Source: Candidatus Borrarchaeum weybense
GTDB lineage: Archaea > Asgardarchaeota > Sifarchaeia > Borrarchaeales > Borrarchaeaceae
Direction of reading: 5' to 3'
Length of the DNA: 64,000 nt
NCBI GenBank assembly: GCA_019057385.1
Contig: JAHQJS010000006.1
Coordinates: 709,038 to 773,037 of the forward strand
Below the pieces are notes generated by a model. It worked only from the letters and a program-made list of their open reading frames with translations, was not told where the DNA came from and ran no database searches. A program made the translations under genes and the position numbers. This document shows, one piece after another, positions 28,612 through 52,026 of this stretch; positions within the stretch are counted from its first letter, which is position 1; the number at the start of each line of letters is the position of its first letter.

Positions 28612-29192
28612 ATGTTGTTTGAAGTTGGGATTATGGCATTAAAAATACTAGAATATCCAGAAAAACTGTCAGATTTTTTCGTTAAAGCGATAATCATTGG
28701 ATTTATATACGCAATTTGTATCTATGGTTTCCGATTCGTGTTTCAGTTCCTACAGGTCAGACCTATACCTGGTAATCCTTTGCTAGGCTTTGTTCTTGAA
28801 GTTATAGCTGGAGTAATTCTTGCCTTAGTTCTTGGCTTTGTTTCAATTAGATTAACCTTTCCGTTTGTTACACGATCCATATTTGTCTTTTCGATTTTAT
28901 TCATTATAGGCTACGCAAATAATATTGTGGAACTCCTCTTCTATTCAACAACACCAATCTATGTATTCTATCATGACTTTGCATTCACACTAGCAACGCA
29001 CATAGTAACGGCTGCGGTTATTGCTCTTCTCTTTCCACCACTGAACGACACAGATTCTGCGATAACTCAACTAAAGATTTTCTTCTCTGGACACTCAACG
29101 ACTTGGTGGATTTTCCGAGTGTTGATAGCCGGTGCATTATATTTCCCAATTTATTTTGCTTTTGGTTTGGTAGTCAGCCCGATAGTAGTACC
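28612..29192 (+). pseudogene. Multi-TM membrane protein, 5' part, interrupted by an IS
   Basis: Joining 29192 to 31079 restores ..SPIVVP-YYTDPVLGL.. in frame (about 300 aa in total). Confidence 0.85.
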
Positions 29193-31078
29193 GTTCCTTT
29201 CACAATAGACATCTATTACAATAATAGTGTCTATCCACTCACGCGCGAAAGGGGAGTGGAGTCCCCGCTAGGACGGTTGAGCGGGATACCTGTCGCCATA
29301 TAGGGGACAGGCTTTGCGGATTTTAACCTAAAACGTTTGTTCCGAAGTTCTTGATACACACGATAGATATTTATGGCGGCAATGTAATCGCGATCGGCTA
29401 GATAGCAACACGCGCTACATTGAAAGAATCTCCCTCGTTGTATGGCATGACGGGAGCGGGGATCGCTGATTTTCTCGCCTTTGGCACCACAGCGCGGACA
29501 ATAACTCGACGTCCACCTGGGATTTACTCGGACAATCCTAATTCCGAAGTGTTTTGCCTTGTACTTAAGGATGTCATACAACGCCCCTCGTAACCAATTC
29601 GACAGTTTACGGGAGAGTTTTCGCTTGTGTTTCGGCGGCTGGTAGGTGCGCAAGTCCTCCAACACGATGGTCTTGCACCCCCATTTAAGGGCAGTCTTTA
29701 GCAGTTGGTTGCTCGCTAGGTGCAAGATTTCCTCCCGATAGCGGTTCAGTTTACGGTAAAGCCGCTCTAGTTCTTGTTGGCGTTTGCCCTGCCCGTACCA
29801 ATTGACGAGGTAGCGGTCTAACTTGCGTTGCAGACGGGCAATATGGTGGTAGAGGGAGTCTATCTTTTGTAACACGGTGTGAGACGGCGACCAAAATAGT
29901 GGAGTGCTCAACTGCGACCCAGCTTCACAAATTACCGAGGTCGTCAGATTGATCACCCCTAGGTCCGTCGCCAGCACCCGATTTGCCTGTAACGCAGAAT
30001 ACTGTGTTTGAAGTTGAACGTTGTGCTGTGTGTCTGGATTAAAAGACCAGGCACATTCCAAAAAAGGCAGTGTTAAGCCGCTTTTCAGCGTCAGATAGCG
30101 TAAAGTCGGAGCACACAATTTACTAGTGGACGAGCTAATACGTTGGTGAATTTGGGCAGGTATCGACAGGATACACTCCTGCCAGGTCCAGTGGGACCGT
30201 TGTGAGGGCTGAGCACACTGTGGTACTTTCAGGCTGATACGGATGGTGAAAGGATCTTTTTCTGGCTGCCAGTCATACTGAATGACCTGTCCCTCATCAG
30301 GGCTGTAGGGAAGTATAAAAGAGCGAATTTGTGGTGTTACCACTGCCGTATAAGGAAACTGCTTCAAGACGCTGAGATCCAGGCCCAATTGATAGTAGTA
30401 GCGCCTAAAGGTGCGTAGCGTTTGACGGATTAGCGCCCATCGATAGTATTTGCCTTCAAAATTCGCTAAGGTGAAGGCTACGGTGCGCACTAAACTATCG
30501 AGGTTCTCCTCCACACCCGTGATTTGCACGATGCGCAACACGTCAAAATAACACTGCTTGCGGATGGCTTGGGAACGGAGTATGCGTCCTACCTGTTCGG
30601 CAATACAGCGTCTGATGCGTGAGGGGAGATACACTGGTTTCCCTTGAGAGGTAGTCAAAATGACGCGTTTTTCGTTGACGACTTTGTAGGCTTTGTTGTT
30701 ACGGTTGGAATCCAGCGCATCAATCCAGTGATCCGACCATAAGGCCTCTAATAACTGTTGAGCGGCTTGTAAAGCCAATTCCCGTAGCATATCCAGTTGG
30801 TGGCGTAAGGTAGTATGCTGTGGGAATTTGAGTGGATAACTTAGCGTCAGGGAGGTCATGACTGCCAGCATTCCCCTATGGTGAGGGTGATGTGTGAGCC
30901 GAGTTAGTTATCGGCACATATATTTTAAGGAGGCTGCTATAAAAAGGCAACGATTCCGTTAGTACTCACAACAGAACTCCATTCATCTGCCTCCACCACG
31001 AAATATGTGTCTCTAACACGAGATAGTTGACTACATGTGATAAAATTTGTCTATAAAATTATCAACAGTTGACCACCC
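29193..31078 (-). mobile_element. Non-autonomous tnpB-only IS, probably IS607 family (1,886 bp)
   Basis: CC (GG on the element strand) at both junctions, 29191-29192 and 31077-31078; no terminal IRs; short GTCAAC/ATAGAC repeats near the ends; visibly higher GC than the host; no tnpA. Confidence 0.8.
29231..30871 (-). CDS. tnpB: Long (546 aa) TnpB-family RNA-guided nuclease
   Basis: RuvC-I LATDLG, RuvC-II IVLEDL, Zn finger CPRC/CSAC, RuvC-III DRDYIAAINI; D-E-D triad intact. Confidence 0.92.
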   Translation of the reverse strand: MLAVMTSLTLSYPLKFPQHTTLRHQLDMLRELALQAAQQLLEALWSDHWIDALDSNRNNKAYKVVNEKRVILTTSQGKPVYLPSRIRRCIAEQVGRILRSQAIRKQCYFDVLRIVQITGVEENLDSLVRTVAFTLANFEGKYYRWALIRQTLRTFRRYYYQLGLDLSVLKQFPYTAVVTPQIRSFILPYSPDEGQVIQYDWQPEKDPFTIRISLKVPQCAQPSQRSHWTWQECILSIPAQIHQRISSSTSKLCAPTLRYLTLKSGLTLPFLECAWSFNPDTQHNVQLQTQYSALQANRVLATDLGVINLTTSVICEAGSQLSTPLFWSPSHTVLQKIDSLYHHIARLQRKLDRYLVNWYGQGKRQQELERLYRKLNRYREEILHLASNQLLKTALKWGCKTIVLEDLRTYQPPKHKRKLSRKLSNWLRGALYDILKYKAKHFGIRIVRVNPRWTSSYCPRCGAKGEKISDPRSRHAIQRGRFFQCSACCYLADRDYIAAINIYRVYQELRNKRFRLKSAKPVPYMATGIPLNRPSGDSTPLSRVSG

Positions 31079-42796: not shown

Positions 42797-43117
42797 TTGT
42801 TGGAGGGTATTTTCATTTCAACTAAAAATCCTTGTGTTCGAGAAGCCTGTCTTTATGAAGAATTACCAAACAAGAAAGTACGCTGTGGCGTATGTGAACG
42901 AAGATGTGTAATCCTCAACGGAGAGCGAGGATTTTGTAAAACACGTGAAAATATGGATGGCAAATTGTTTACATTGATTTATGGCGATATTTCATCAATT
43001 TCTGCCAATCCTATTGAAAAAAAACCATTATTTCATTTCTGGCCAGGAAGCCATGCACTAACTGTAGGCTCATGGAGCTGTAATTTTACCTGTCCATGGT
43101 GTCAGAATTGTGGAATT
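42797..43117 (+). pseudogene. AmmeMemoRadiSam-type (PflA-like) radical SAM enzyme, 5' part
   Basis: CGVCERRC..GFCKTREN..NPIEKKPLFHFWPG..SCNFTCPWCQNCGI, then the element; the 8 remaining codons come from the element. Confidence 0.92.
43103..43117 (+). repeat. attL core, 15-bp direct repeat CAGAATTGTGGAATT
   Basis: Identical to 51214-51228; encodes Q-N-C-G-I of the host gene. Confidence 0.93.
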
Positions 43118-43193
43118 GATCATAAAGGTATTACCCTATGTTAATACAAATCAATACCTTATTATAATACTTTCAACACAAATCTTTCCTATT

Positions 43194-43484
43194 ATGACTG
43201 AATCTATTTGGCATGAAAAAATTAAAGAGAAACTAGAACAAGAATACCTAAGAAGAGGATATTCCAAACATTCTATTTTTCCAGAATTTACGGTTATTGG
43301 TTCAAATTATAGAGTTGATTTTGCAATTATAACCGATAAAAAACGAATCTGCTATGAAATAGGTTCTGTTAATACTACCAAAGACCGAATGGATAGAATC
43401 TTTGACTTTTTTGATGAAATCAGACATATCCCTTTTCATGCTGATATTTACGATTATTATTTCATAAAAAATAAAAATGACTAA
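43194..43484 (+). CDS. Small PD-(D/E)XK-like nuclease-fold protein
   Basis: WHEKIK..PEF..YRVDFAI..ICYEIG; likely ATG at 43194 within ORF 43110-43484. Confidence 0.6.
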   Translation: MTESIWHEKIKEKLEQEYLRRGYSKHSIFPEFTVIGSNYRVDFAIITDKKRICYEIGSVNTTKDRMDRIFDFFDEIRHIPFHADIYDYYFIKNKND

Positions 43485-43590
43485 CTCAAAGGAATTATCT
43501 CAATATTATTAATATTTTCATTAAACATTATCCTTTAATAATTTAGATGTGATATAAAATTAGACACAAATAAAAAAATGGGGGATAGAA

Positions 43591-44709
43591 ATACCTATTA
43601 ATCAAATTTTTGAATTTAAATCTGACTGGTTTCAATTTTATCAGGCTGTTCTTAGAAATGAGATAGAGGACGAATCCTTTACAAAAAAATATTTAAAGGC
43701 ATATATAGTCGAATCTAATTTCGAATCTATTGATCAACTTAAAGCATATCACCCAGAGTTAAAGAACAAGATCATTGAATCAAAAGAACAATCTTTTTAT
43801 AATATCAAATATGGAACGCATAAATTCTTATATCTCGATACAGAGAACGATCGTTTTTGGGTTATTCATAGTCTAGAAAGACAAGAGGACATTCACCCTA
43901 AAATTGTTGAACTATTCTGTAATAGTTATCTCCAAGATAAAATATATGTTCCAAATCAAATGATGGAGGATTATCGGAAAAATTATAGTAAACAATCATT
44001 AGGAGCGAGCTTAAACTTTAAACAATTGATTGCAGAGAAAGAACCTAAAGACCAACGATTAAGTACAGATGTTTCAGAAGATCTAGAAGGAGAAATTGAT
44101 AATTACGCATTAAGAATATGGCTTAACAGATCAGAAAAAATGGATTATGTACTTAAAAGTTTCAAACAAATTGGATTGCCAATTAATTATAATTATCTTA
44201 ATTATGCCTTTTATAATGAAGATAATGAACTTATTATGAAAGAGAACTTTCATAGAGATGGTAAATTTACGATTAATAAAGGGATAGAACTTATCCAGCA
44301 TATTAATTTTGTTCACAAAGTTAGAGACGACTATAGTTCAAAATTGAATTTAATTGAAGATTACCGTATTGATTGGACGAAAAAAAAGGGTGATTTAATA
44401 AAAATTCTATTTACAAAGAAAGATATAGACCCCAAAAAACTATATCAGAGTTTCAAGTCCTATAAGTCAACCTTTCGAATGATAATTATCCCATTATTCA
44501 AAGAAAAAGACTATTATTTTTTTGATTGTTTAGATACACACACAGGAGGGCGTTTTTCTTTACAAATATCTAAAAGACAAATTCTTGTTAATCTAAAACC
44601 AGATTCATGCGGTAATGTTGTTTTTCGCTTACTCTCCAATTTACAAAAACATATTTCTTCAGAAATTTCAATTGAAATAGATAATCAAGATTTAAAAATT
44701 CTAAATTAA
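43591..44709 (+). CDS. Hypothetical protein of about 372 aa with probable non-AUG start
   Basis: The frame of ORF 43960 is open from 43564 with protein-like sequence (KAYIVESN..YLDTENDRFWVIHS); only ATA/ATT candidates after GGGGG (43580-43584); C-terminal DTHTGG..SCGNVVFRLLSNLQ. Confidence 0.7.
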   Translation: MPINQIFEFKSDWFQFYQAVLRNEIEDESFTKKYLKAYIVESNFESIDQLKAYHPELKNKIIESKEQSFYNIKYGTHKFLYLDTENDRFWVIHSLERQEDIHPKIVELFCNSYLQDKIYVPNQMMEDYRKNYSKQSLGASLNFKQLIAEKEPKDQRLSTDVSEDLEGEIDNYALRIWLNRSEKMDYVLKSFKQIGLPINYNYLNYAFYNEDNELIMKENFHRDGKFTINKGIELIQHINFVHKVRDDYSSKLNLIEDYRIDWTKKKGDLIKILFTKKDIDPKKLYQSFKSYKSTFRMIIIPLFKEKDYYFFDCLDTHTGGRFSLQISKRQILVNLKPDSCGNVVFRLLSNLQKHISSEISIEIDNQDLKILN

Positions 44710-44728
44710 AAGGAGCTGAAATTCTCCT

Positions 44729-45697
44729 TTGATAAATTTAATACAAGTTTTTAAAATTTCTAGTATAACTAAAACACTTAATTTTTTATTAGCATGTTTT
44801 AAGAAAATGCAAAATCATAGAAGAATAATATATGAACTAGATATTTCTCTACAAAATGATTCAAATTGCAAGCCTGATCTATTTTGTCTTTTAGTTGAGG
44901 AAGGTGAGTTTTATTATAGTCTTTTTGAGATTAAAGCACGAACTGTATTTTCAGAAGAGGATATTAATGAGAAGATAAAACCACAATATTTATCATATCA
45001 AAATATAACCGTTAATGATTTAGATGATTATCTCATTCCAAGAATCCAAAATACAACTATCTATATTAATTATTTATTTTATGACTCAGAGCGACAAATA
45101 ATTGATCAAATAATCAACAGTGTACCAATTCAATCGAACGTATATCATTTAAACTTAAATGAACGCCAAATTATTGCCATTCAATCAAATTCAGGAAATC
45201 TTAATGACCAATTAATGGAGAAGATTATAGAGTTATCCCAAGAGACAAGTCTTTGGAATAAAATATATGTTCCTTTTACCTTTAAGGATATCCAAGATTT
45301 TCGAGGAAAAGGGGGAAAGGAAGTAGATATTCATAACAGATCAGGTATAATTCTTGCTGTTAATTTTATGATGTTTGTTCTTTCGAGAAAAATTAGAAAA
45401 GAAGATACACTTTTCCTAGTGGATGATTTCATAAATTATGTATTCCAAAATAATTTTGAGAACTTAAATGTAGGTTGGGAACAAAGAAAAACATTTAAGA
45501 AAAAATTTAGATTATTTTTACAGTTTATTTGTAATGAATTACCAAAAAAAATTGACATTGATCCGATTATTGAGAAAACTGATGGATATTACAGAATTTT
45601 ATTAAGACACACAGCTACATTAGAAAGGAGAATAAGTGAAATCACGCAAGAATTAATCAAATTTTTAAAACAAAAAAGACTACCTGAGTTTTATTGA
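44729..45697 (+). CDS. PD-(D/E)XK-motif nuclease-like protein
   Basis: KPDLFCLL..SLFEIKAR..Q motif; 19 bp after the preceding gene. Confidence 0.65.
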   Translation: MINLIQVFKISSITKTLNFLLACFKKMQNHRRIIYELDISLQNDSNCKPDLFCLLVEEGEFYYSLFEIKARTVFSEEDINEKIKPQYLSYQNITVNDLDDYLIPRIQNTTIYINYLFYDSERQIIDQIINSVPIQSNVYHLNLNERQIIAIQSNSGNLNDQLMEKIIELSQETSLWNKIYVPFTFKDIQDFRGKGGKEVDIHNRSGIILAVNFMMFVLSRKIRKEDTLFLVDDFINYVFQNNFENLNVGWEQRKTFKKKFRLFLQFICNELPKKIDIDPIIEKTDGYYRILLRHTATLERRISEITQELIKFLKQKRLPEFY

Positions 45698-45925
45698 ATA
45701 ATAGATTTTTACAAGCAGTTTCTGGGCATTTTCCTTGAAGATAGAACTTTATGTACCGTATCTAAAAAAAGAATGAATTTTATACCTTAATTATCTAGTA
45801 AAATATCACTTGATTTTAAATACCCATTTTAAATACCTTTTTTCATAACAGGTTACTTTTCCTTATCAAAACAAGTAAATAGTATGTCAATTACCTATCA
45901 TACTAAGATATATCAAAATTATAAT

Positions 45926-46480
45926 CTACTGTTCTACTGAAAACCTCGCAAGTGATTGTTGATGTTGGTAAATATCTTCTGTATATCTTGAAATAAAATC
46001 AGTATTTACTCCTTTTTTTCTATCCTGAGTATATTTTGCATTTAACTGGCAGTCTAAATTATTATTCGGTAATGCTACATCAAATTCATATTGTAATGAG
46101 ATATTATCTTTTATATCCTCCATTTCTATTCTCAATGGAAATACCTGTTCCTGTTCCCATTCGCCTTTCCAATTCCTTCCCTCACATCTCCCCTCTATTT
46201 CTCTATCATTATCAAATATCTTTAGGGTAGGTGCTTCAACGGTTGTGTTTTTTCCACCAGCATTGATAATTCTAATTTTAACCCATAATCTATGTGTATG
46301 GTGTTCACTTTCCATTATCTCAACACTAAATTTTTGTCGTTCTGTAATAAATCGAATAACTTGTATTATCGTTCCACTTGTACCTATTGCACCTAATACT
46401 AAAGCTATTATTGTAGTCAAATCTGTTGTTGATACTGTTGTTGCTGTTTGTGTTGCATTTTGTAACATCATTTCTATCAC
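45926..46480 (-). CDS. TM-anchored beta-rich hypothetical protein
   Basis: TM IIALVLGAIGTSGTIIQVI followed by VKIRIINAGGKNTTV. Confidence 0.7.
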   Translation of the reverse strand: MIEMMLQNATQTATTVSTTDLTTIIALVLGAIGTSGTIIQVIRFITERQKFSVEIMESEHHTHRLWVKIRIINAGGKNTTVEAPTLKIFDNDREIEGRCEGRNWKGEWEQEQVFPLRIEMEDIKDNISLQYEFDVALPNNNLDCQLNAKYTQDRKKGVNTDFISRYTEDIYQHQQSLARFSVEQ

Positions 46481-46759
46481 TACTAATTACCCTTTCAATA
46501 TTATTAGATTTCTGTCCTGCTATCTATTTCTTCTAATAAGGTATCTAAATCTTCTATCCAATTACCTAACATCCTATCATTTTTTATACCTCATTTAACA
46601 TTCTACCTATTATTTCTCTATAACTAAAAATTGAGAAAAAACTGAGAGATAGTTTTAGAAAACAAAAAGAGGATTCTTACTTTGGATGCAAAATAATTAA
46701 GTTTAAGATATGTAGAATAAACTCTTTTTTATCCTATTATAGAAAATTAGATCTTGTTT

Positions 46760-47252
46760 TTATATACTTAAGTTCCGTAAATTATCTAATATATCATCTA
46801 TCTTTTGTTTTAATCTCTCTAACTTATTCTTATTCTCTGTAATAAAATCAGTACTGCTCTCTACGTTTATTATCAGATCACGATCAAAAATAGCATTTAT
46901 CTTTTCAACATCAACCTCAATATCAGCATCCACATAAATTTTTCCTAACTGAGATAGAAATGGATCTGTAAGCAAATATAAAATTCCACTGGATCGGATA
47001 AAAATCCAAGCGTTATCATCTAAATTTATAGGCGGAATGGCAAAATCCCTAATGTTCTGATTCTAAAATTTTTATATGTCCTTCAATTTTTAATTTATTT
47101 TGAGTTAATTCAATGATAAGATTCTTTTTGACCTTATCCAATTCTTGATTTCTTCTATCCTTTTCTTTCTTAACATCCCACGCTAAGCCTAATAGAAAAC
47201 CAATAATAACTCCTATTAAACCTGAAATTGTTGGATCTATTTTTAACATCAT
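46760..47252 (-). pseudogene. TM-anchored protein split by one frameshift near 47060
   Basis: ORFs 47049-47252 and 46760-46975 join through an open shifted frame (NQNIRDFAIPPINLDDNAWIFIRSSGILYLL); span is 3n+1. Confidence 0.7.
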
Positions 47253-47272
47253 ATTCTCGATCCTTAGAGATA

Positions 47273-47615
47273 TTATTCACTACGTTTCATCTGCTCAGTC
47301 ATAATATCTTTAACCTTTTCTTCATCAACAACTTCTACTTTTACCCCATTTATTCTTACTTCTGCAATTTTTTTATCCTTTAACTTTTCTTTCAACCAAA
47401 AAGCAAATTTGATAATATTTCCGATATTACTAATTATTGTTGTTATTAGAACAATATCTGGAATACCAATTGCTTTTCTAATGTATGTACTCCCATTCTA
47501 CTGTTACATCCTCAGAAATAGATTTTCTTGTTTCTCCTACTGAGAGTTCCTTTGTTTCAAATAACTCAAACTCTAAGGATTTCTCAAATGTTTCAATCTC
47601 TATATCAAATCTCAT
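47273..47615 (-). pseudogene. Small protein split by one frameshift near 47490
   Basis: MRFDIEIETFE..VTVEW, then shifted frame ..IRKAIGIPDIVLIT..WLKEKLK..RINGVKVEV..*; span is 3n+1. Confidence 0.6.
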
Positions 47616-47730
47616 GGAAAAAGTCTATGTTTTCTTCTTCTTATTAAAATTATATGGCAAATTTCTAAAAAATTGAAAAATCCCCATTTCACTAATTTTA
47701 TTATATTCAGAAATTCTATATCTTTAAAAC

Positions 47731-48522
47731 ATGTCAATTTTCAAAGACTTAAAAAAATATAAAGAACACATACTCCGCATTGTTGTCCTCATAGTTATAG
47801 TAATAATCGTACCGCTAATTATTAGGTTACTTTTCCCCGAGTTTTTTAATATGTTTGTAATCCCCATAGTTGTCGGATTGATCACATCTGCTATTTGGTA
47901 TTATATAGTTTGGACTCTCTTTATTTATCCAACACAAAAAAGGGCAGAAGTTGTAAAGAAAGCAGTCTTTAAACTATTACTTAACTCTGAGATCCATTAT
48001 CCCCTTGGTGTAATAATTTTTAATCTTCTTCTTAAAGAGGATAAAACACCCGAAAACTTTTATAGGAATATCAAAAGCTATGTAGAGGCAAACCCTCAAA
48101 TATTTCAAGATTCAAATCTCTTAATCAATTATTTGAAAGCCATTTCTTTGGATGAATTTCACCAAGGCTTAATTGAGAAAATGACTCACTTAGATGATCA
48201 CACATGGAACAAAATAATAGATGCTACAATTAACTTAAAAAAAATTCTTAGTGATTTTCACACTCGTTATCCTCTTCATTACTCCAACGCTTGTAACATC
48301 TATCATAACGATCATCGCCATTACCTTCATGTTTCTTGTATCTATATTCTACATCGTTTATTTCCACACATCCAAATTTTTTATTCGCTATTTCTTTTCT
48401 CTTCTTACGTTTCTTCCTTCTCTTCTTATCTCTACTTAGTTCTATCAATTCACGCTTTGCATCTCTTGATATTTTTTCAAGATCAATCTTACTCATTTTC
48501 TTCACTTAAATACTCTGTCTAA
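47731..48522 (+). CDS. 2-TM membrane protein; the last ~90 codons probably reflect run-on through a lost stop
   Basis: Two N-terminal TMs; after the A-run at about 48238-48244 the ORF is the antisense of 48248-48505. Confidence 0.5.
   Translation: MSIFKDLKKYKEHILRIVVLIVIVIIVPLIIRLLFPEFFNMFVIPIVVGLITSAIWYYIVWTLFIYPTQKRAEVVKKAVFKLLLNSEIHYPLGVIIFNLLLKEDKTPENFYRNIKSYVEANPQIFQDSNLLINYLKAISLDEFHQGLIEKMTHLDDHTWNKIIDATINLKKILSDFHTRYPLHYSNACNIYHNDHRHYLHVSCIYILHRLFPHIQIFYSLFLFSSYVSSFSSYLYLVLSIHALHLLIFFQDQSYSFSSLKYSV
48248..48505 (-). CDS. Small basic protein (uncertain)
   Basis: K/R-rich 85 aa; co-oriented with 48618-48803. Confidence 0.4.
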   Translation of the reverse strand: MKKMSKIDLEKISRDAKRELIELSRDKKRRKKRKKRKEIANKKFGCVEINDVEYRYKKHEGNGDDRYDRCYKRWSNEEDNECENH

Positions 48523-48617
48523 CTCAGTTTTACTCAATTTATGGTTCATAATGTTCAATTTAGGTATCCTATGATACCCCCCTACCTTAACATGGTTTTT
48601 AGAAATCAGATAAAACA

Positions 48618-48803
48618 CTACACTTGACTCATTTTTATTAAATTAGCATTAATGATCTTATCTTTCTTCTTATGACCATTACCATTATTATTGCCAAATG
48701 TATCAATCATTTCCCTTTTTTCCCATATTCTGGTTTTTTTGTCGTACTCTCTACTCGCGTCTGAACAACATCCTATATGCAGGCTATAGCCCCATATATT
48801 CAT
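48618..48803 (-). CDS. Small hypothetical protein (uncertain)
   Basis: Preceded by a strong BRE-TATA CCGAAAGGTTTATATAG (minus strand, about 48852-48868). Confidence 0.35.
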   Translation of the reverse strand: MNIWGYSLHIGCCSDASREYDKKTRIWEKREMIDTFGNNNGNGHKKKDKIINANLIKMSQV

Positions 48804-48945
48804 CTCGGTTCAGGAGATTCAGTATCTCCCAATTAACTATTACCTCAGCACCTATATAAACCTTTCGGTTGATATTAGAGCATATTTCCTTATTTTGAAC
48901 AATTTTATGGTATATCTCAATCTTATAGTATATCTAATAATTTAG

Positions 48946-49089
48946 TTATACCAAAAACCGAATAAAATTATACTTTATAGAATATTGTTATACGTTATTT
49001 TGATTTTGTTATACTTTTCAAAAATAGCAGAATAAAAACCTTTTAATCTATAATTAATAAAAAAAGAAAGTGATACAATAATTGTATCA
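48946..49089. repeat. Phased TTATAC repeats plus a perfect palindrome
   Basis: TTATAC at 48946, 48968, 48988 and 49009 (20-22 bp spacing); TGATACAAT-A-ATTGTATCA at 49071-49089. Confidence 0.7.
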
Positions 49090-49147
49090 AAATAGGGATT
49101 AGGGAAGGAACTTTGCGTTACCAATTCGCTTTTCCTTCTCTTTTTTC

Positions 49148-50497
49148 CTACCAGTATTTATTTTGATTATTACCTAGCACATTCTCTACTCGTTCCTCTA
49201 ATTCTTCTATGCCACTTCTCAGATATAATGATGTTACTCTCAAATTGGCATGACCTAACATCTTTTGTATATCTGATAATAACATCCGTTCACCGTGTTC
49301 ATTCTGGGCTTTTTCCCATATCTTAGCTGCGGTATATCTAACATCATGCGGAGTTACCCTGAATCCTACCTTCTTTGAAATTTCCTTGTAATATTTCCAG
49401 ATAGCATTTCTATATGGTCTTTTTCCTTGCCTTGTAGTTATTAGGTAATCATGGTTCGGTCTAAATAACATTCTTTGTTTCATCTGTCTATTCAAATATC
49501 GTACTTGTTCATCGGTCAATGTCAATATTCGTTCCTTTGGAATATTACCCTTTGACTTGCCGTATATCTTTATTCTTTTACTTTCTAAGTCTATATGTTC
49601 TCTTTTTATCCGTGTATACTCTTCTCTTCTCAATCCAAAGTTCAATCCTAACCAAAAAACAAATCTTAGTATCGGATGTCTTACTGTTTTAAATATTGTT
49701 TTTACTTGTGATTCTGTTAATGATACTCTTGTCGTTTCTGTCCTGTGTTCATTACTATAGTTATTTCTGATCCATTTTCTTATCTTTTTTCTAGTCTTTT
49801 TAGATATACATACATCATTTTCTTCATCCCACGTCAAAAAACCAGCTATAGTATATGCCTTGTTCACTAGCGTATTTACTGAATTAGCTTTCTGATCTCG
49901 TTTTGCATCATAAACACCTTTCGTTTCTAAATGATTGAAATATTCTATCATATCACTTAATTCTAACTCTTGAAATCCCTGTTTATTCCTTACTTCAATG
50001 AGATAACTTTCAAAGTCTACTAGAATGGGTATATTGGTTACTAGACTTGAACGCGCAAACTCACCAGAATAATAATAATCTCTTAATATATCACTTAAAT
50101 TTTCTACATCTGTTTTATTATTATTTTCTGGTATCTCTAAGCCAGCTAATTCTATAGCTGTTATCAATGATCCAAATCGTCTTTTGTAAGTAGCTCCATC
50201 TGGTAACTCTTTTCTTCGCAAATCTGGATATTTCGGTACTCTTCCATGTTCTTCAAAGAATTTTACTAAAACATTCAATAATTCTTTATCAGAATACACA
50301 TAGTTTCTAGGTAAATATCCAGCTAGTCTTACTGCTTTTGACCAGCTACCAAAATGCCTTGTATATGTCATCGGTGAAGGATTCAAAGGATTACCTTTGA
50401 AATCCAATGCTTGAGGAACTTTACCATGCTGTTCATGCAAATCTCTTATGTATTGTAATAAAGATTCATCGGTGTATTTATTGTACTTATTCCCCAT
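49148..50497 (-). CDS. Tyrosine recombinase with two N-terminal homing-endonuclease-associated repeats
   Basis: Catalytic set GLRREE (R), YGK (K), HDVR, LGH, LY; repeats YTDESLL..HGKVP..YTRHFGSW..AVRLAG and YSDKELL..HGRVP..YKRRFGSL..AIELAG. Confidence 0.92.
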   Translation of the reverse strand: MGNKYNKYTDESLLQYIRDLHEQHGKVPQALDFKGNPLNPSPMTYTRHFGSWSKAVRLAGYLPRNYVYSDKELLNVLVKFFEEHGRVPKYPDLRRKELPDGATYKRRFGSLITAIELAGLEIPENNNKTDVENLSDILRDYYYSGEFARSSLVTNIPILVDFESYLIEVRNKQGFQELELSDMIEYFNHLETKGVYDAKRDQKANSVNTLVNKAYTIAGFLTWDEENDVCISKKTRKKIRKWIRNNYSNEHRTETTRVSLTESQVKTIFKTVRHPILRFVFWLGLNFGLRREEYTRIKREHIDLESKRIKIYGKSKGNIPKERILTLTDEQVRYLNRQMKQRMLFRPNHDYLITTRQGKRPYRNAIWKYYKEISKKVGFRVTPHDVRYTAAKIWEKAQNEHGERMLLSDIQKMLGHANLRVTSLYLRSGIEELEERVENVLGNNQNKYW

Positions 50498-51072
50498 TAG
50501 ATCAACGCCTTAACTCCTTTACTGAAATCCCATTTAATTCTACCTATTCCATTTAGATCAAACAAGACATCAGCTAGAATATTCTTGTCAGGATACTCTT
50601 CCAATGGAATATTTTCTTGTTCCCAGTCAAAATACTGAGCTATTCCTTCATCCTCATTTCTGATTGCCTTTTCTAATTCATCAAGACTGATCCAATCTTG
50701 TAGATATTTCTCTTTGAATTTCTCTTGTTGTAATAGTCTCCTTAATCTATTGATAGCTATTTCTCGATTCTTTGTTTCATTCATTTCTTCCAATTGGAGA
50801 TCGGATAATGTTATTGATCTTTTCACTGCCTTTATCTCGTTTCTCAAGTTCTTTTGAATATCTTTAAGTAAATCCATTACTGGATTGATGTTTACTGAAC
50901 TTTGGATAGCCAGCTCTGAATCTGGATAAAATAATATTCCCCTAGAAATAAAGAACTCACAGGCATATCTGACAAACTCTGAAGTATCCATTTCGTTGTC
51001 TTCTGCAAACTTCTTGATTCTTTCCTTTTGTATGGATGATGCTTTCACTACGATATGTTCATTCTTTACCAA
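50497..51072 (-). CDS. Ribbon-helix-helix protein translationally coupled to the integrase
   Basis: HIVVKAS..KERIKKFAEDNEMDTSEFVRYAC (RHH pattern); TAATG overlap with the integrase start. Confidence 0.75.
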   Translation of the reverse strand: MVKNEHIVVKASSIQKERIKKFAEDNEMDTSEFVRYACEFFISRGILFYPDSELAIQSSVNINPVMDLLKDIQKNLRNEIKAVKRSITLSDLQLEEMNETKNREIAINRLRRLLQQEKFKEKYLQDWISLDELEKAIRNEDEGIAQYFDWEQENIPLEEYPDKNILADVLFDLNGIGRIKWDFSKGVKALI

Positions 51073-51176
51073 TTATTCACACGCCCTTGTTTTAGTTCTC
51101 TAAAAAGTCGTATGGTTATCCAGTACGCGGGATTTTACCCCGTACTTTCATCTCTAATACTCTTTATACCCTAGTA

Positions 51177-51196
51177 CCTATAAATACTTTACGGTT
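51177..51196 (-). promoter_or_regulatory. BRE-TATA promoter of the RHH-integrase operon, next to attR
   Basis: Minus strand AACCGTAAAGTATTTATAGG, similar to the promoter near 48860; hairpin at 51122-51146 in the leader. Confidence 0.55.
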
Positions 51197-51213
51197 ATTA
51201 ATACTTTTATAGC

Positions 51214-51228
51214 CAGAATTGTGGAATT
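51214..51228 (+). repeat. attR core CAGAATTGTGGAATT
   Basis: Identical to 43103-43117. Confidence 0.93.
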
Positions 51229-52026
51229 AGCAAAACCGAACCAAATTCACGTCGAACAAACTATATGAGTCCAGAAGTATTCGAAAAAACTATGAAAGCG
51301 AATGATTGCATTGGATCATCGATTAGCTTTAATGAACCTACCCTGCTTTTGGAATACTCTCTTGATGTATTTGATACTGTGAAAGAATCTGGTCTATATT
51401 ATAATACATATATAACAAATATGTACATGACAGAAGAGGCTTTGAAATTACTCACAGAACATAAATGCGATGCGTTTGCCGCTAATATGAAGGGCGATGC
51501 AGAAGTTGTCAAAAAGCACTGTGGTGCTGATATAGAACTCATATGGAGAAACCTAAAGTTAGCAAAGGAAATGGGTGCACATATCGAAGTAATCACACTC
51601 GTCATACCCACAATCAATGATGATGTGCAAACCCTAAAAGAGATTGCCACTCGTATCTATGATGAGTTAGGAAAGGACACACCTTGGCATTGCACTCAGT
51701 TTTTTCCTGCATATAAATCTAGGGAAATAGGACTCAAAAAGAGAACACCAATCGAGACACTGGAAAAAGCCTACGAACTTGGAAAAGACGCTGGTTTGCG
51801 ATTTGTGTATTTGGGAAATGTCCCAAATCACCCTTATGAAAACACATATTGTCCTTCCTGCAATGCGTTATTGATTAAACGGTTTATTTTTGACTCACAG
51901 ATCTTTTTTAATGTTAAAAAAAGAATAGATGATAGAATTGATTTTGAAAAAAGGTGTCCTAACTGTGGAGAACATATTGAAATATTTGGTGAGTTCATTA
52001 GAAAAGAAAAAGGGGTTTTTAGCTAA
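51229..52026 (+). pseudogene. AmmeMemoRadiSam-type radical SAM enzyme, 3' part
   Basis: SKTEPNSRRTNY-MSPE..SFNEPT..PWHCTQFFP..FVYLGNVP..ENTYCPSC; in frame with the 5' part across the att core. Confidence 0.92.

Follow-up and report, generated by a model that had tools for sequence, protein, structure and literature searches.

A gene for a 449-aa integrase (49148..50497, minus strand) lies within the stretch of DNA analyzed here, which spans 64 kb and will be referred to as the window. Its product combines two HNH_repeat units with the core-binding and catalytic domains of a tyrosine recombinase. We are highly confident that the fusion is genuine and that the protein is the integrase of an 8.1-kb element. 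The explanation that best accommodates the whole arrangement, to which we assign a probability of about one half, is a site-specific integrase in which the repeats would act as an arm-binding module and an RHH-like protein, encoded by the adjacent gene, as a regulator. The host is an Asgard archaeon of the class Sifarchaeia, a small class with six species genomes; genes for actin (455 bits) and ESCRT-II establish the phylum.

The N-terminus of the integrase matches the Pfam family HNH_repeat (PF18780) in two stretches, with an E-value of 2.6e-26 and a score of 92.2 bits (cut-off 26). A profile scan of the genome located unit 1, made of four helices, at residues 8–61 (50315..50476, minus strand; 52.2 bits) and unit 2 at residues 68–121 (50135..50296, minus strand; 47.7 bits). 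The two units share 42% identity (E 3e-13) when residues 8–60 are aligned with residues 68–119. An initial annotation, made from the sequence, had recognized a two-copy repeat of this kind, and the Pfam check that we ran agrees with it. The repeats are followed by a helical core-binding (SAM-like) domain at residues ~130–250 (49748..50110, minus strand), delimited by AF2 helices at 136–246 and by Foldseek; in relatives of the protein, the core-binding region matches Phage_int_SAM families. The catalytic domain comprises residues 260–449 (49148..49720, minus strand), as judged from Pfam and from the family alignment, and matches Phage_integrase (PF00589) over residues 260–428 (E 3.8e-22, 79.3 bits, cut-off 27.1). 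The initial annotation had also described a complete R-K-HxxR-H-Y set; these residues are R290, K316, H384, R387, H416 and Y425, and all are invariant across an alignment of 13 family members.

An AlphaFold model of the integrase was built from the same 13-member alignment (mean pLDDT 79.5). In Foldseek, residues ~130–449 of the model align to two-domain tyrosine recombinases over 310–340 columns. The matches include XerA (5hxy, E 1.6e-10), XerH, Tn1549 Int (82–397), lambda Int (75–356) and Cre, and the probability is 1.00 for the last three. Because residues ~130–449 thus make a complete core-binding and catalytic enzyme, the first ~125 residues constitute an extra N-terminal module. Integrases of the lambda type carry an arm-binding domain ahead of the core-binding domain, and this is the position occupied by the repeats, as had been proposed at the outset. 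None of the Pfam arm-binding families (Arm-DNA-bind, AP2, DUF4102) matches the integrase.

Over residues ~130–449 the best match, both in sequence and in fold, is to archaeal XerA and Xer-like integrases (5hxy, 4a8e). XerA is also the nearest NCBIfam family (NF040815); identity with XerA was nevertheless ruled out because the score is 89.3 bits and the equivalog cut-off is 220. XerA differs, furthermore, in that it lacks any extension at the N-terminus and in that the sites it resolves are dif sites and not the att sites of an element. A separate, ordinary Xer-like gene is found in the same genome (142.9 bits). Judged by its sequence, the window protein is a tyrosine recombinase with a Xer-like catalytic domain, and recombination activity is predicted.

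The integrase gene and its RHH-like neighbor are located at the right end of an island of low GC content (27–33%, compared with 35–40% in the surroundings). Both ends of the element carry a perfect 15-bp direct repeat, CAGAATTGTGGAATT, one copy being at attL (43103..43117) and the other at attR (51214..51228). The element is inserted in an AmmeMemoRadiSam radical SAM gene, within the region of the Fe-S motif. The 5′ fragment (42797..43117, or 42797..43144 in a longer delimitation; plus strand) includes the CxxxCxxC motif, with which the shorter version ends, and the 3′ part continues in frame across the core (51214..52026, plus strand). An empty site is available in a sister species from the same genus (G004), where the identical core lies within an intact 372-aa ORF whose flanks correspond to attL on the left side and to attR on the right side. 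Against the profile of the AmmeMemoRadiSam radical SAM enzyme (TIGR04337), this uninterrupted gene reaches 230.5 bits. In a second sister species (G002) the radical SAM gene is uninterrupted too, and the core has one base different. The perfect 15-bp repeat and the uninterrupted gene in sister species are the traces left by site-specific integration of the ~8.1-kb element.

Examination of the cargo, most of which has no assigned function, did not reveal virus hallmarks, and a single PHROG of unknown function was matched. The match corresponds to an ORF at 43960–44709 (E 9.5e-14), in a frame that is open from 43564. The left-end cargo (43110–45697) has no Pfam match, and Rfam matched nothing anywhere in the 64-kb window. 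Elsewhere in the window, a GC-rich patch is found at 29000–31000 (48–49%, versus ~37%), and most of it is occupied by a 546-aa ORF (29231–30871, minus strand).

Candidate arm-type sites can be recognized next to both cores. On the right side, the segment 51157..51207 (plus strand) contains TAATACTCTT, followed by two copies of TAT(A/T)AATACTTT in tandem at a distance of 17 bp. On the left side, the segment 43125..43173 contains AATACCTT on the minus strand at 43125, TAATAC at 43142, AATACCTT on the plus strand at 43153 and AATACTTT on the plus strand at 43166. Five of the 19 AATACYTT sites of the window lie at 60 bp or less from the cores, all of them on the element side. The AATACYTT/TAATAC motif had first been chosen by eye. 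In an unbiased test of the highest k-mer counts in the two 80-bp subterminal segments, TAATAC appeared five times and one 8-mer three times, counts that are reached by 1–3% of random window pairs and indicate a modest enrichment. In addition, a GC-rich imperfect palindrome, AGTACGCGG-N7-CCCCGTACT, is found at 51122..51146, 50–75 bp upstream of the start of the RHH-like ORF, and is a candidate operator. The same order (a tandem repeat, in this case of 13 bp, then a palindrome, then an RHH gene) is found at the locus of a relative, L046, with different sequences. These observations are suggestive only: the boxes would fit arm-type sites for the repeat pair, and the palindrome an operator for the RHH-like protein.

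No TAATAC or AATACYTT box was found on the host side of either junction. This observation bears on a different use of the repeats, namely that they extend recognition of the attB target in the radical SAM gene, as a targeting module of a homing nuclease would do, instead of reading the arms. Modules of this kind are assumed to assist target binding in homing nucleases, and the target is in fact a conserved coding sequence, with its core identical in one sister species and a single base off in another. However, recognition of the core is normally the task of the core-binding and catalytic domains, both complete in this protein, and the paralogs of the family are not found beside split radical SAM genes. 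Recognition of attB by the repeats seems to us, on balance, quite improbable.

The RHH-like ORF encodes 191 aa, with a coiled C-terminal part (50497..51072, minus strand), and its stop overlaps the start of the integrase gene: the last A of its TAA is the first base of the integrase ATG (TAATG). The overlap had been pointed out in the initial annotation. It stands as described, the two genes being translationally coupled, and the pairing recurs in relatives. At three other loci (L046, L043 and L055) an RHH-like ORF is found directly upstream of the integrase gene, the two genes overlapping by up to 10 nt or being at most 4 nt apart. The proposed RHH identity is a weak assignment. A 45-aa N-terminus with a putative beta-alpha-alpha pattern is conserved in the four integrase-linked ORFs, and the best, albeit weak, PDB sequence match is SvtR (2kel, E 0.043), an RHH repressor of an archaeal virus. 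The Pfam scores, however, fall below the cut-offs: 15.5–18.7 bits versus 27 for NikA-like families, and 21.4 bits versus 27 for DUF6290 in the ORF of a relative. Because the four loci with an RHH-like gene are scattered over the phylogenetic tree, the pairing is probably ancestral and was later lost from solo copies. A 194-aa ORF upstream of a split relative (L064) was considered as an additional RHH homologue and discarded as unrelated to the RHH protein. Prediction of a complex between the integrase and the RHH-like protein gave a score of 0.00, which is not evidence either way. We are inclined, by a small margin, to view the RHH-like protein as a regulator or directionality factor.

In the one paper of the searched literature that mentions it, HNH_repeat is listed among the repeat families without known structure. 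When the N-domain was modeled alone with AF2 on 43 sequences (pLDDT 89.6), each unit consisted of one long and three short helices. Foldseek comparison of this model with the PDB gave nothing at E ≤ 0.001, and a profile search of PDB sequences returned only designed helical repeats (E ~0.05). The best match found by VIA-align was a four-helix segment of the SauUSI coupler, its first subdomain (618–669; Z 6.4, rmsd 1.9 Å, 53 residues), followed by the HTH region of DsrC (Z 5.3) and by many TetR DNA-binding domains (Z 4–5); all these Z values are below the reliability level for helical matches and may reflect a common arrangement only. The SauUSI subdomain is treated as a connector, not as a DNA reader, in the SauUSI paper.

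Among 92 related proteins, the partners of the repeat were SF2 helicases (8–9 cases), LAGLIDADG enzymes (5), integrases (4), Vsr-like nucleases (2) and HNH (1), and many short proteins made of HNH plus the repeat were found by word searches. The initial annotation had viewed the N-terminus as a homing-nuclease module co-opted by the integrase, a description that we consider overstated, since helicases, LAGLIDADG proteins and other enzymes carry the repeat as well as HNH nucleases. The window protein resembles the PF18780 proteins that contain HNH or HNH_5, SF2 helicase or LAGLIDADG domains in that it has the same repeat, at 30–42% identity and in tandem arrays, and departs from them in that the repeat is joined to a tyrosine recombinase. 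Cross-hits to LexA_DNA_bind, Sigma70_r3 and HTH_38 were obtained with other HNH_repeat proteins. The best reading of these comparisons and of the model is that the repeat may be a nucleic-acid-associated, HTH-like module.

The same data can be interpreted in a different way: the repeats might be a structural or protein-protein module that couples or oligomerizes protomers, or recruits a host factor, and does not read DNA in a sequence-specific manner. The top structural match is, as indicated above, a coupler subdomain, and the repeat follows the SF2 helicase domains in those 8–9 of the 92 related proteins. Yet every fusion partner is an enzyme that acts on DNA (HNH, LAGLIDADG and Vsr-like nucleases, helicases and integrases), and the cross-hits are with HTH families. 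Besides, the module occupies the position of an arm-binding domain, and repeated boxes flank the core. We regard a purely structural role as unlikely and consider it probable that the repeats bind DNA. That they bind these particular arm boxes is a more tentative proposal, for which we would not claim even odds. In broader terms, the role in arm-site or target recognition that the initial annotation had suggested is plausible.

In the explanation that we favor, with the repeats as arm-binding module, the core-binding and catalytic domains would act on the 15-bp core, as is usual for tyrosine recombinases, while the N-terminal repeat pair would fill the role of the arm-binding domain of lambda Int. 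The pair would bind TAATAC(T/C)TT boxes located at ~60 bp or less from the core on both arms, and this binding would help to assemble an attP intasome of compact form. The RHH-like protein, translated together with the integrase, would bind the palindrome that lies near attR in the promoter of its gene, and would set either integrase expression or the direction of recombination.

Several known systems can be compared with this scheme. Like lambda Int, the Tn916 and Tn1549 integrases and the P4-type integrases, the window protein is built in three tiers, its core-binding and catalytic domains being preceded by an additional module at the N-terminus. As in systems of the lambda Int type, the integrase is encoded by the element, a short identical core is present at both junctions, repeated boxes lie near the core, and a small accessory gene, here RHH-like and predicted to encode a DNA-binding protein, is found beside int. 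There are also two differences: the N-terminal module is made of two all-helical HNH_repeat units, not of a beta-sheet arm-binding fold, and the candidate arms, with ~60 bp per side, are very short. SSV-type and SNJ2-type integrases are comparable in that they belong to archaeal integrative elements. According to PMC5861418, SNJ2 Int also requires small accessory proteins. Identity with the SSV type was ruled out: integration leaves the int gene whole, because the core belongs to the radical SAM gene of the host. The feature is, on this comparison, a lineage-restricted variant of the heterobivalent style of tyrosine integrase, with putative arm binding.

The architecture is not confined to one gene. 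Four HNH_repeat integrases of 449, 450, 440 and 609 aa, the last with four repeats, are encoded in the genome of the window, and all the HNH_repeat matches of that genome fall within these four genes. Two other genomes, G001 and G004, contain two HNH_repeat integrases each. Five more full-length fused proteins, all from metagenomes (P0050, P0071, P0100, P0113 and P0132), were recovered with HMMER among 1.84 billion cluster representatives. The number of repeats in the family varies from 1 to 4. Among 400 Asgard genomes, matches that include the repeats occur in only three, all from the genus of the window, and the fusion was not found in the other 397. The remaining Asgard matches align with the C-terminal part only and are almost all open frames of ~190–350 aa, the exceptions being one 135-aa fragment and one 428-aa frame. 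Neither among 50,697 phage records nor among 72,556 plasmid records were both halves of the protein covered together. Word-based homologue searches returned none of the other fused relatives. Scanning a genome collection with the window protein alone gave no matches, and scanning it with an alignment of the crown group gave only three loci, all from one genus.

In a maximum-likelihood tree of the core-binding and catalytic part, the 13 fused proteins and one additional protein, P0151, form a single clade (support 99/98). At the locus of P0151 (L064:819-2172, on a sediment metagenome contig), a separate 130-aa ORF with two HNH_repeats precedes, by 28 nt and in another frame, the 310-aa integrase; this arrangement could be either a real split or a frameshift. 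Because all members of the clade carry the HNH_repeat module, the fusion has a single origin. The sources of the clade are one Sifarchaeia genus (Asgard) and metagenome contigs, and the members whose source is known come from marine sediment. The window integrase is the most divergent member. Its closest relative, with 66% identity, is a C-terminal stub of ~224 codons without repeats upstream (L063:1161-1835, on a metagenome contig), which is a decayed copy. The nearest non-fused relatives are integrases of ~290–330 aa from other Asgard genomes.

Neither a review on archaeal tyrosine recombinases nor two papers on Asgard mobile elements describe an integrase fused to HNH_repeat, and HNH or homing modules are not mentioned in the review. 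No description of the fusion was found in the searchable literature, in agreement with the initial annotation, which likewise pointed to no characterized integrase of this architecture. The architecture is rare, lineage-restricted and previously undescribed. It is not, however, a one-off, as it defines a family, small and monophyletic, of which the genome of the window alone has four members.

Three intact paralogs (G000, contig C7: 572276-573637, 592896-594221 and 670587-672425) are found among housekeeping-type genes, and neither an RHH partner nor a low-GC island nor convincing flanking repeats were found around them. Most paralogs are in the same situation: they stand alone, with no RHH partner, no recognizable element and no split radical SAM gene. 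On the evidence so far, therefore, insertion into coding genes is not characteristic of the family. At L041, a 17-bp flanking repeat was considered as a pair of element ends and rejected as a chance occurrence; the element would enclose carbamoyl-phosphate synthase genes. Two other loci deserve mention as separate observations. At L036:7510-9645, on the metagenome contig that encodes P0050, the integrase gene converges with a radical SAM gene of another type, and the two overlap at their 3′ ends. At L043:13531-14739 (contig C27 of G004), a 402-aa IscB-like ORF (RRXRR, 200 bits, plus HNH) lies ~2.6 kb from the paralogous RHH-integrase pair, and a patch of 49–54% GC around this ORF may hold its guide RNA.

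A further possible reading is that the integrase and its solo paralogs are immobile relics, or were domesticated for some other DNA rearrangement. In contigs from four sediment runs, belonging to two studies, only the integrated form was detected, and a circular junction was not seen; such contigs drop rare variants. In one run, with sediment from a different study, a variant with ~95–97% identity was found at the same left (attL) junction. Run X4 yielded a weak joint from 43035 to 51327 (side 29), below the tool's own reliability mark, that may be the empty site of a diverged relative. The detection of the integrated form only, the variant at the same attL junction, the lack of identifiable elements, flanking repeats or RHH partners in most paralogs and the truncated stub among the close relatives are in line with this reading. 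On the other hand, intact ORFs and complete catalytic sets are found throughout the clade, and the 15-bp repeats are perfect; moreover, because contigs lose rare variants, rare excised forms may exist. We consider it rather unlikely that the integrase and its paralogs are relics or domesticated enzymes.

Tyrosine integrases derive their choice of site and their directionality from accessory DNA-binding domains, of which, to our knowledge, only a few types have been characterized. The element described here is a natural example of an all-helical repeat attached to an otherwise ordinary integrase, with precise att sites, an empty site known from a sister species, and candidate arm boxes. As HNH_repeat has no known structure or function, the integrase system offers a simple assay for the role of the repeat. 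A speculative extension, to which we attribute a low probability, is that HNH_repeat arrays are modular DNA-reading devices with one unit per box. If true, the copy number of the repeat (1–4), together with the residues of the recognition helix, would set the sites that are engaged by a recombinase, a nuclease or a helicase, and the integrase clade would be a natural series for reading out the code and for retargeting integrases. The finding leaves the understanding of tyrosine recombination itself unchanged; what it adds is an integrase family, specific to one lineage, among the few mobile elements catalogued so far for Asgard archaea.
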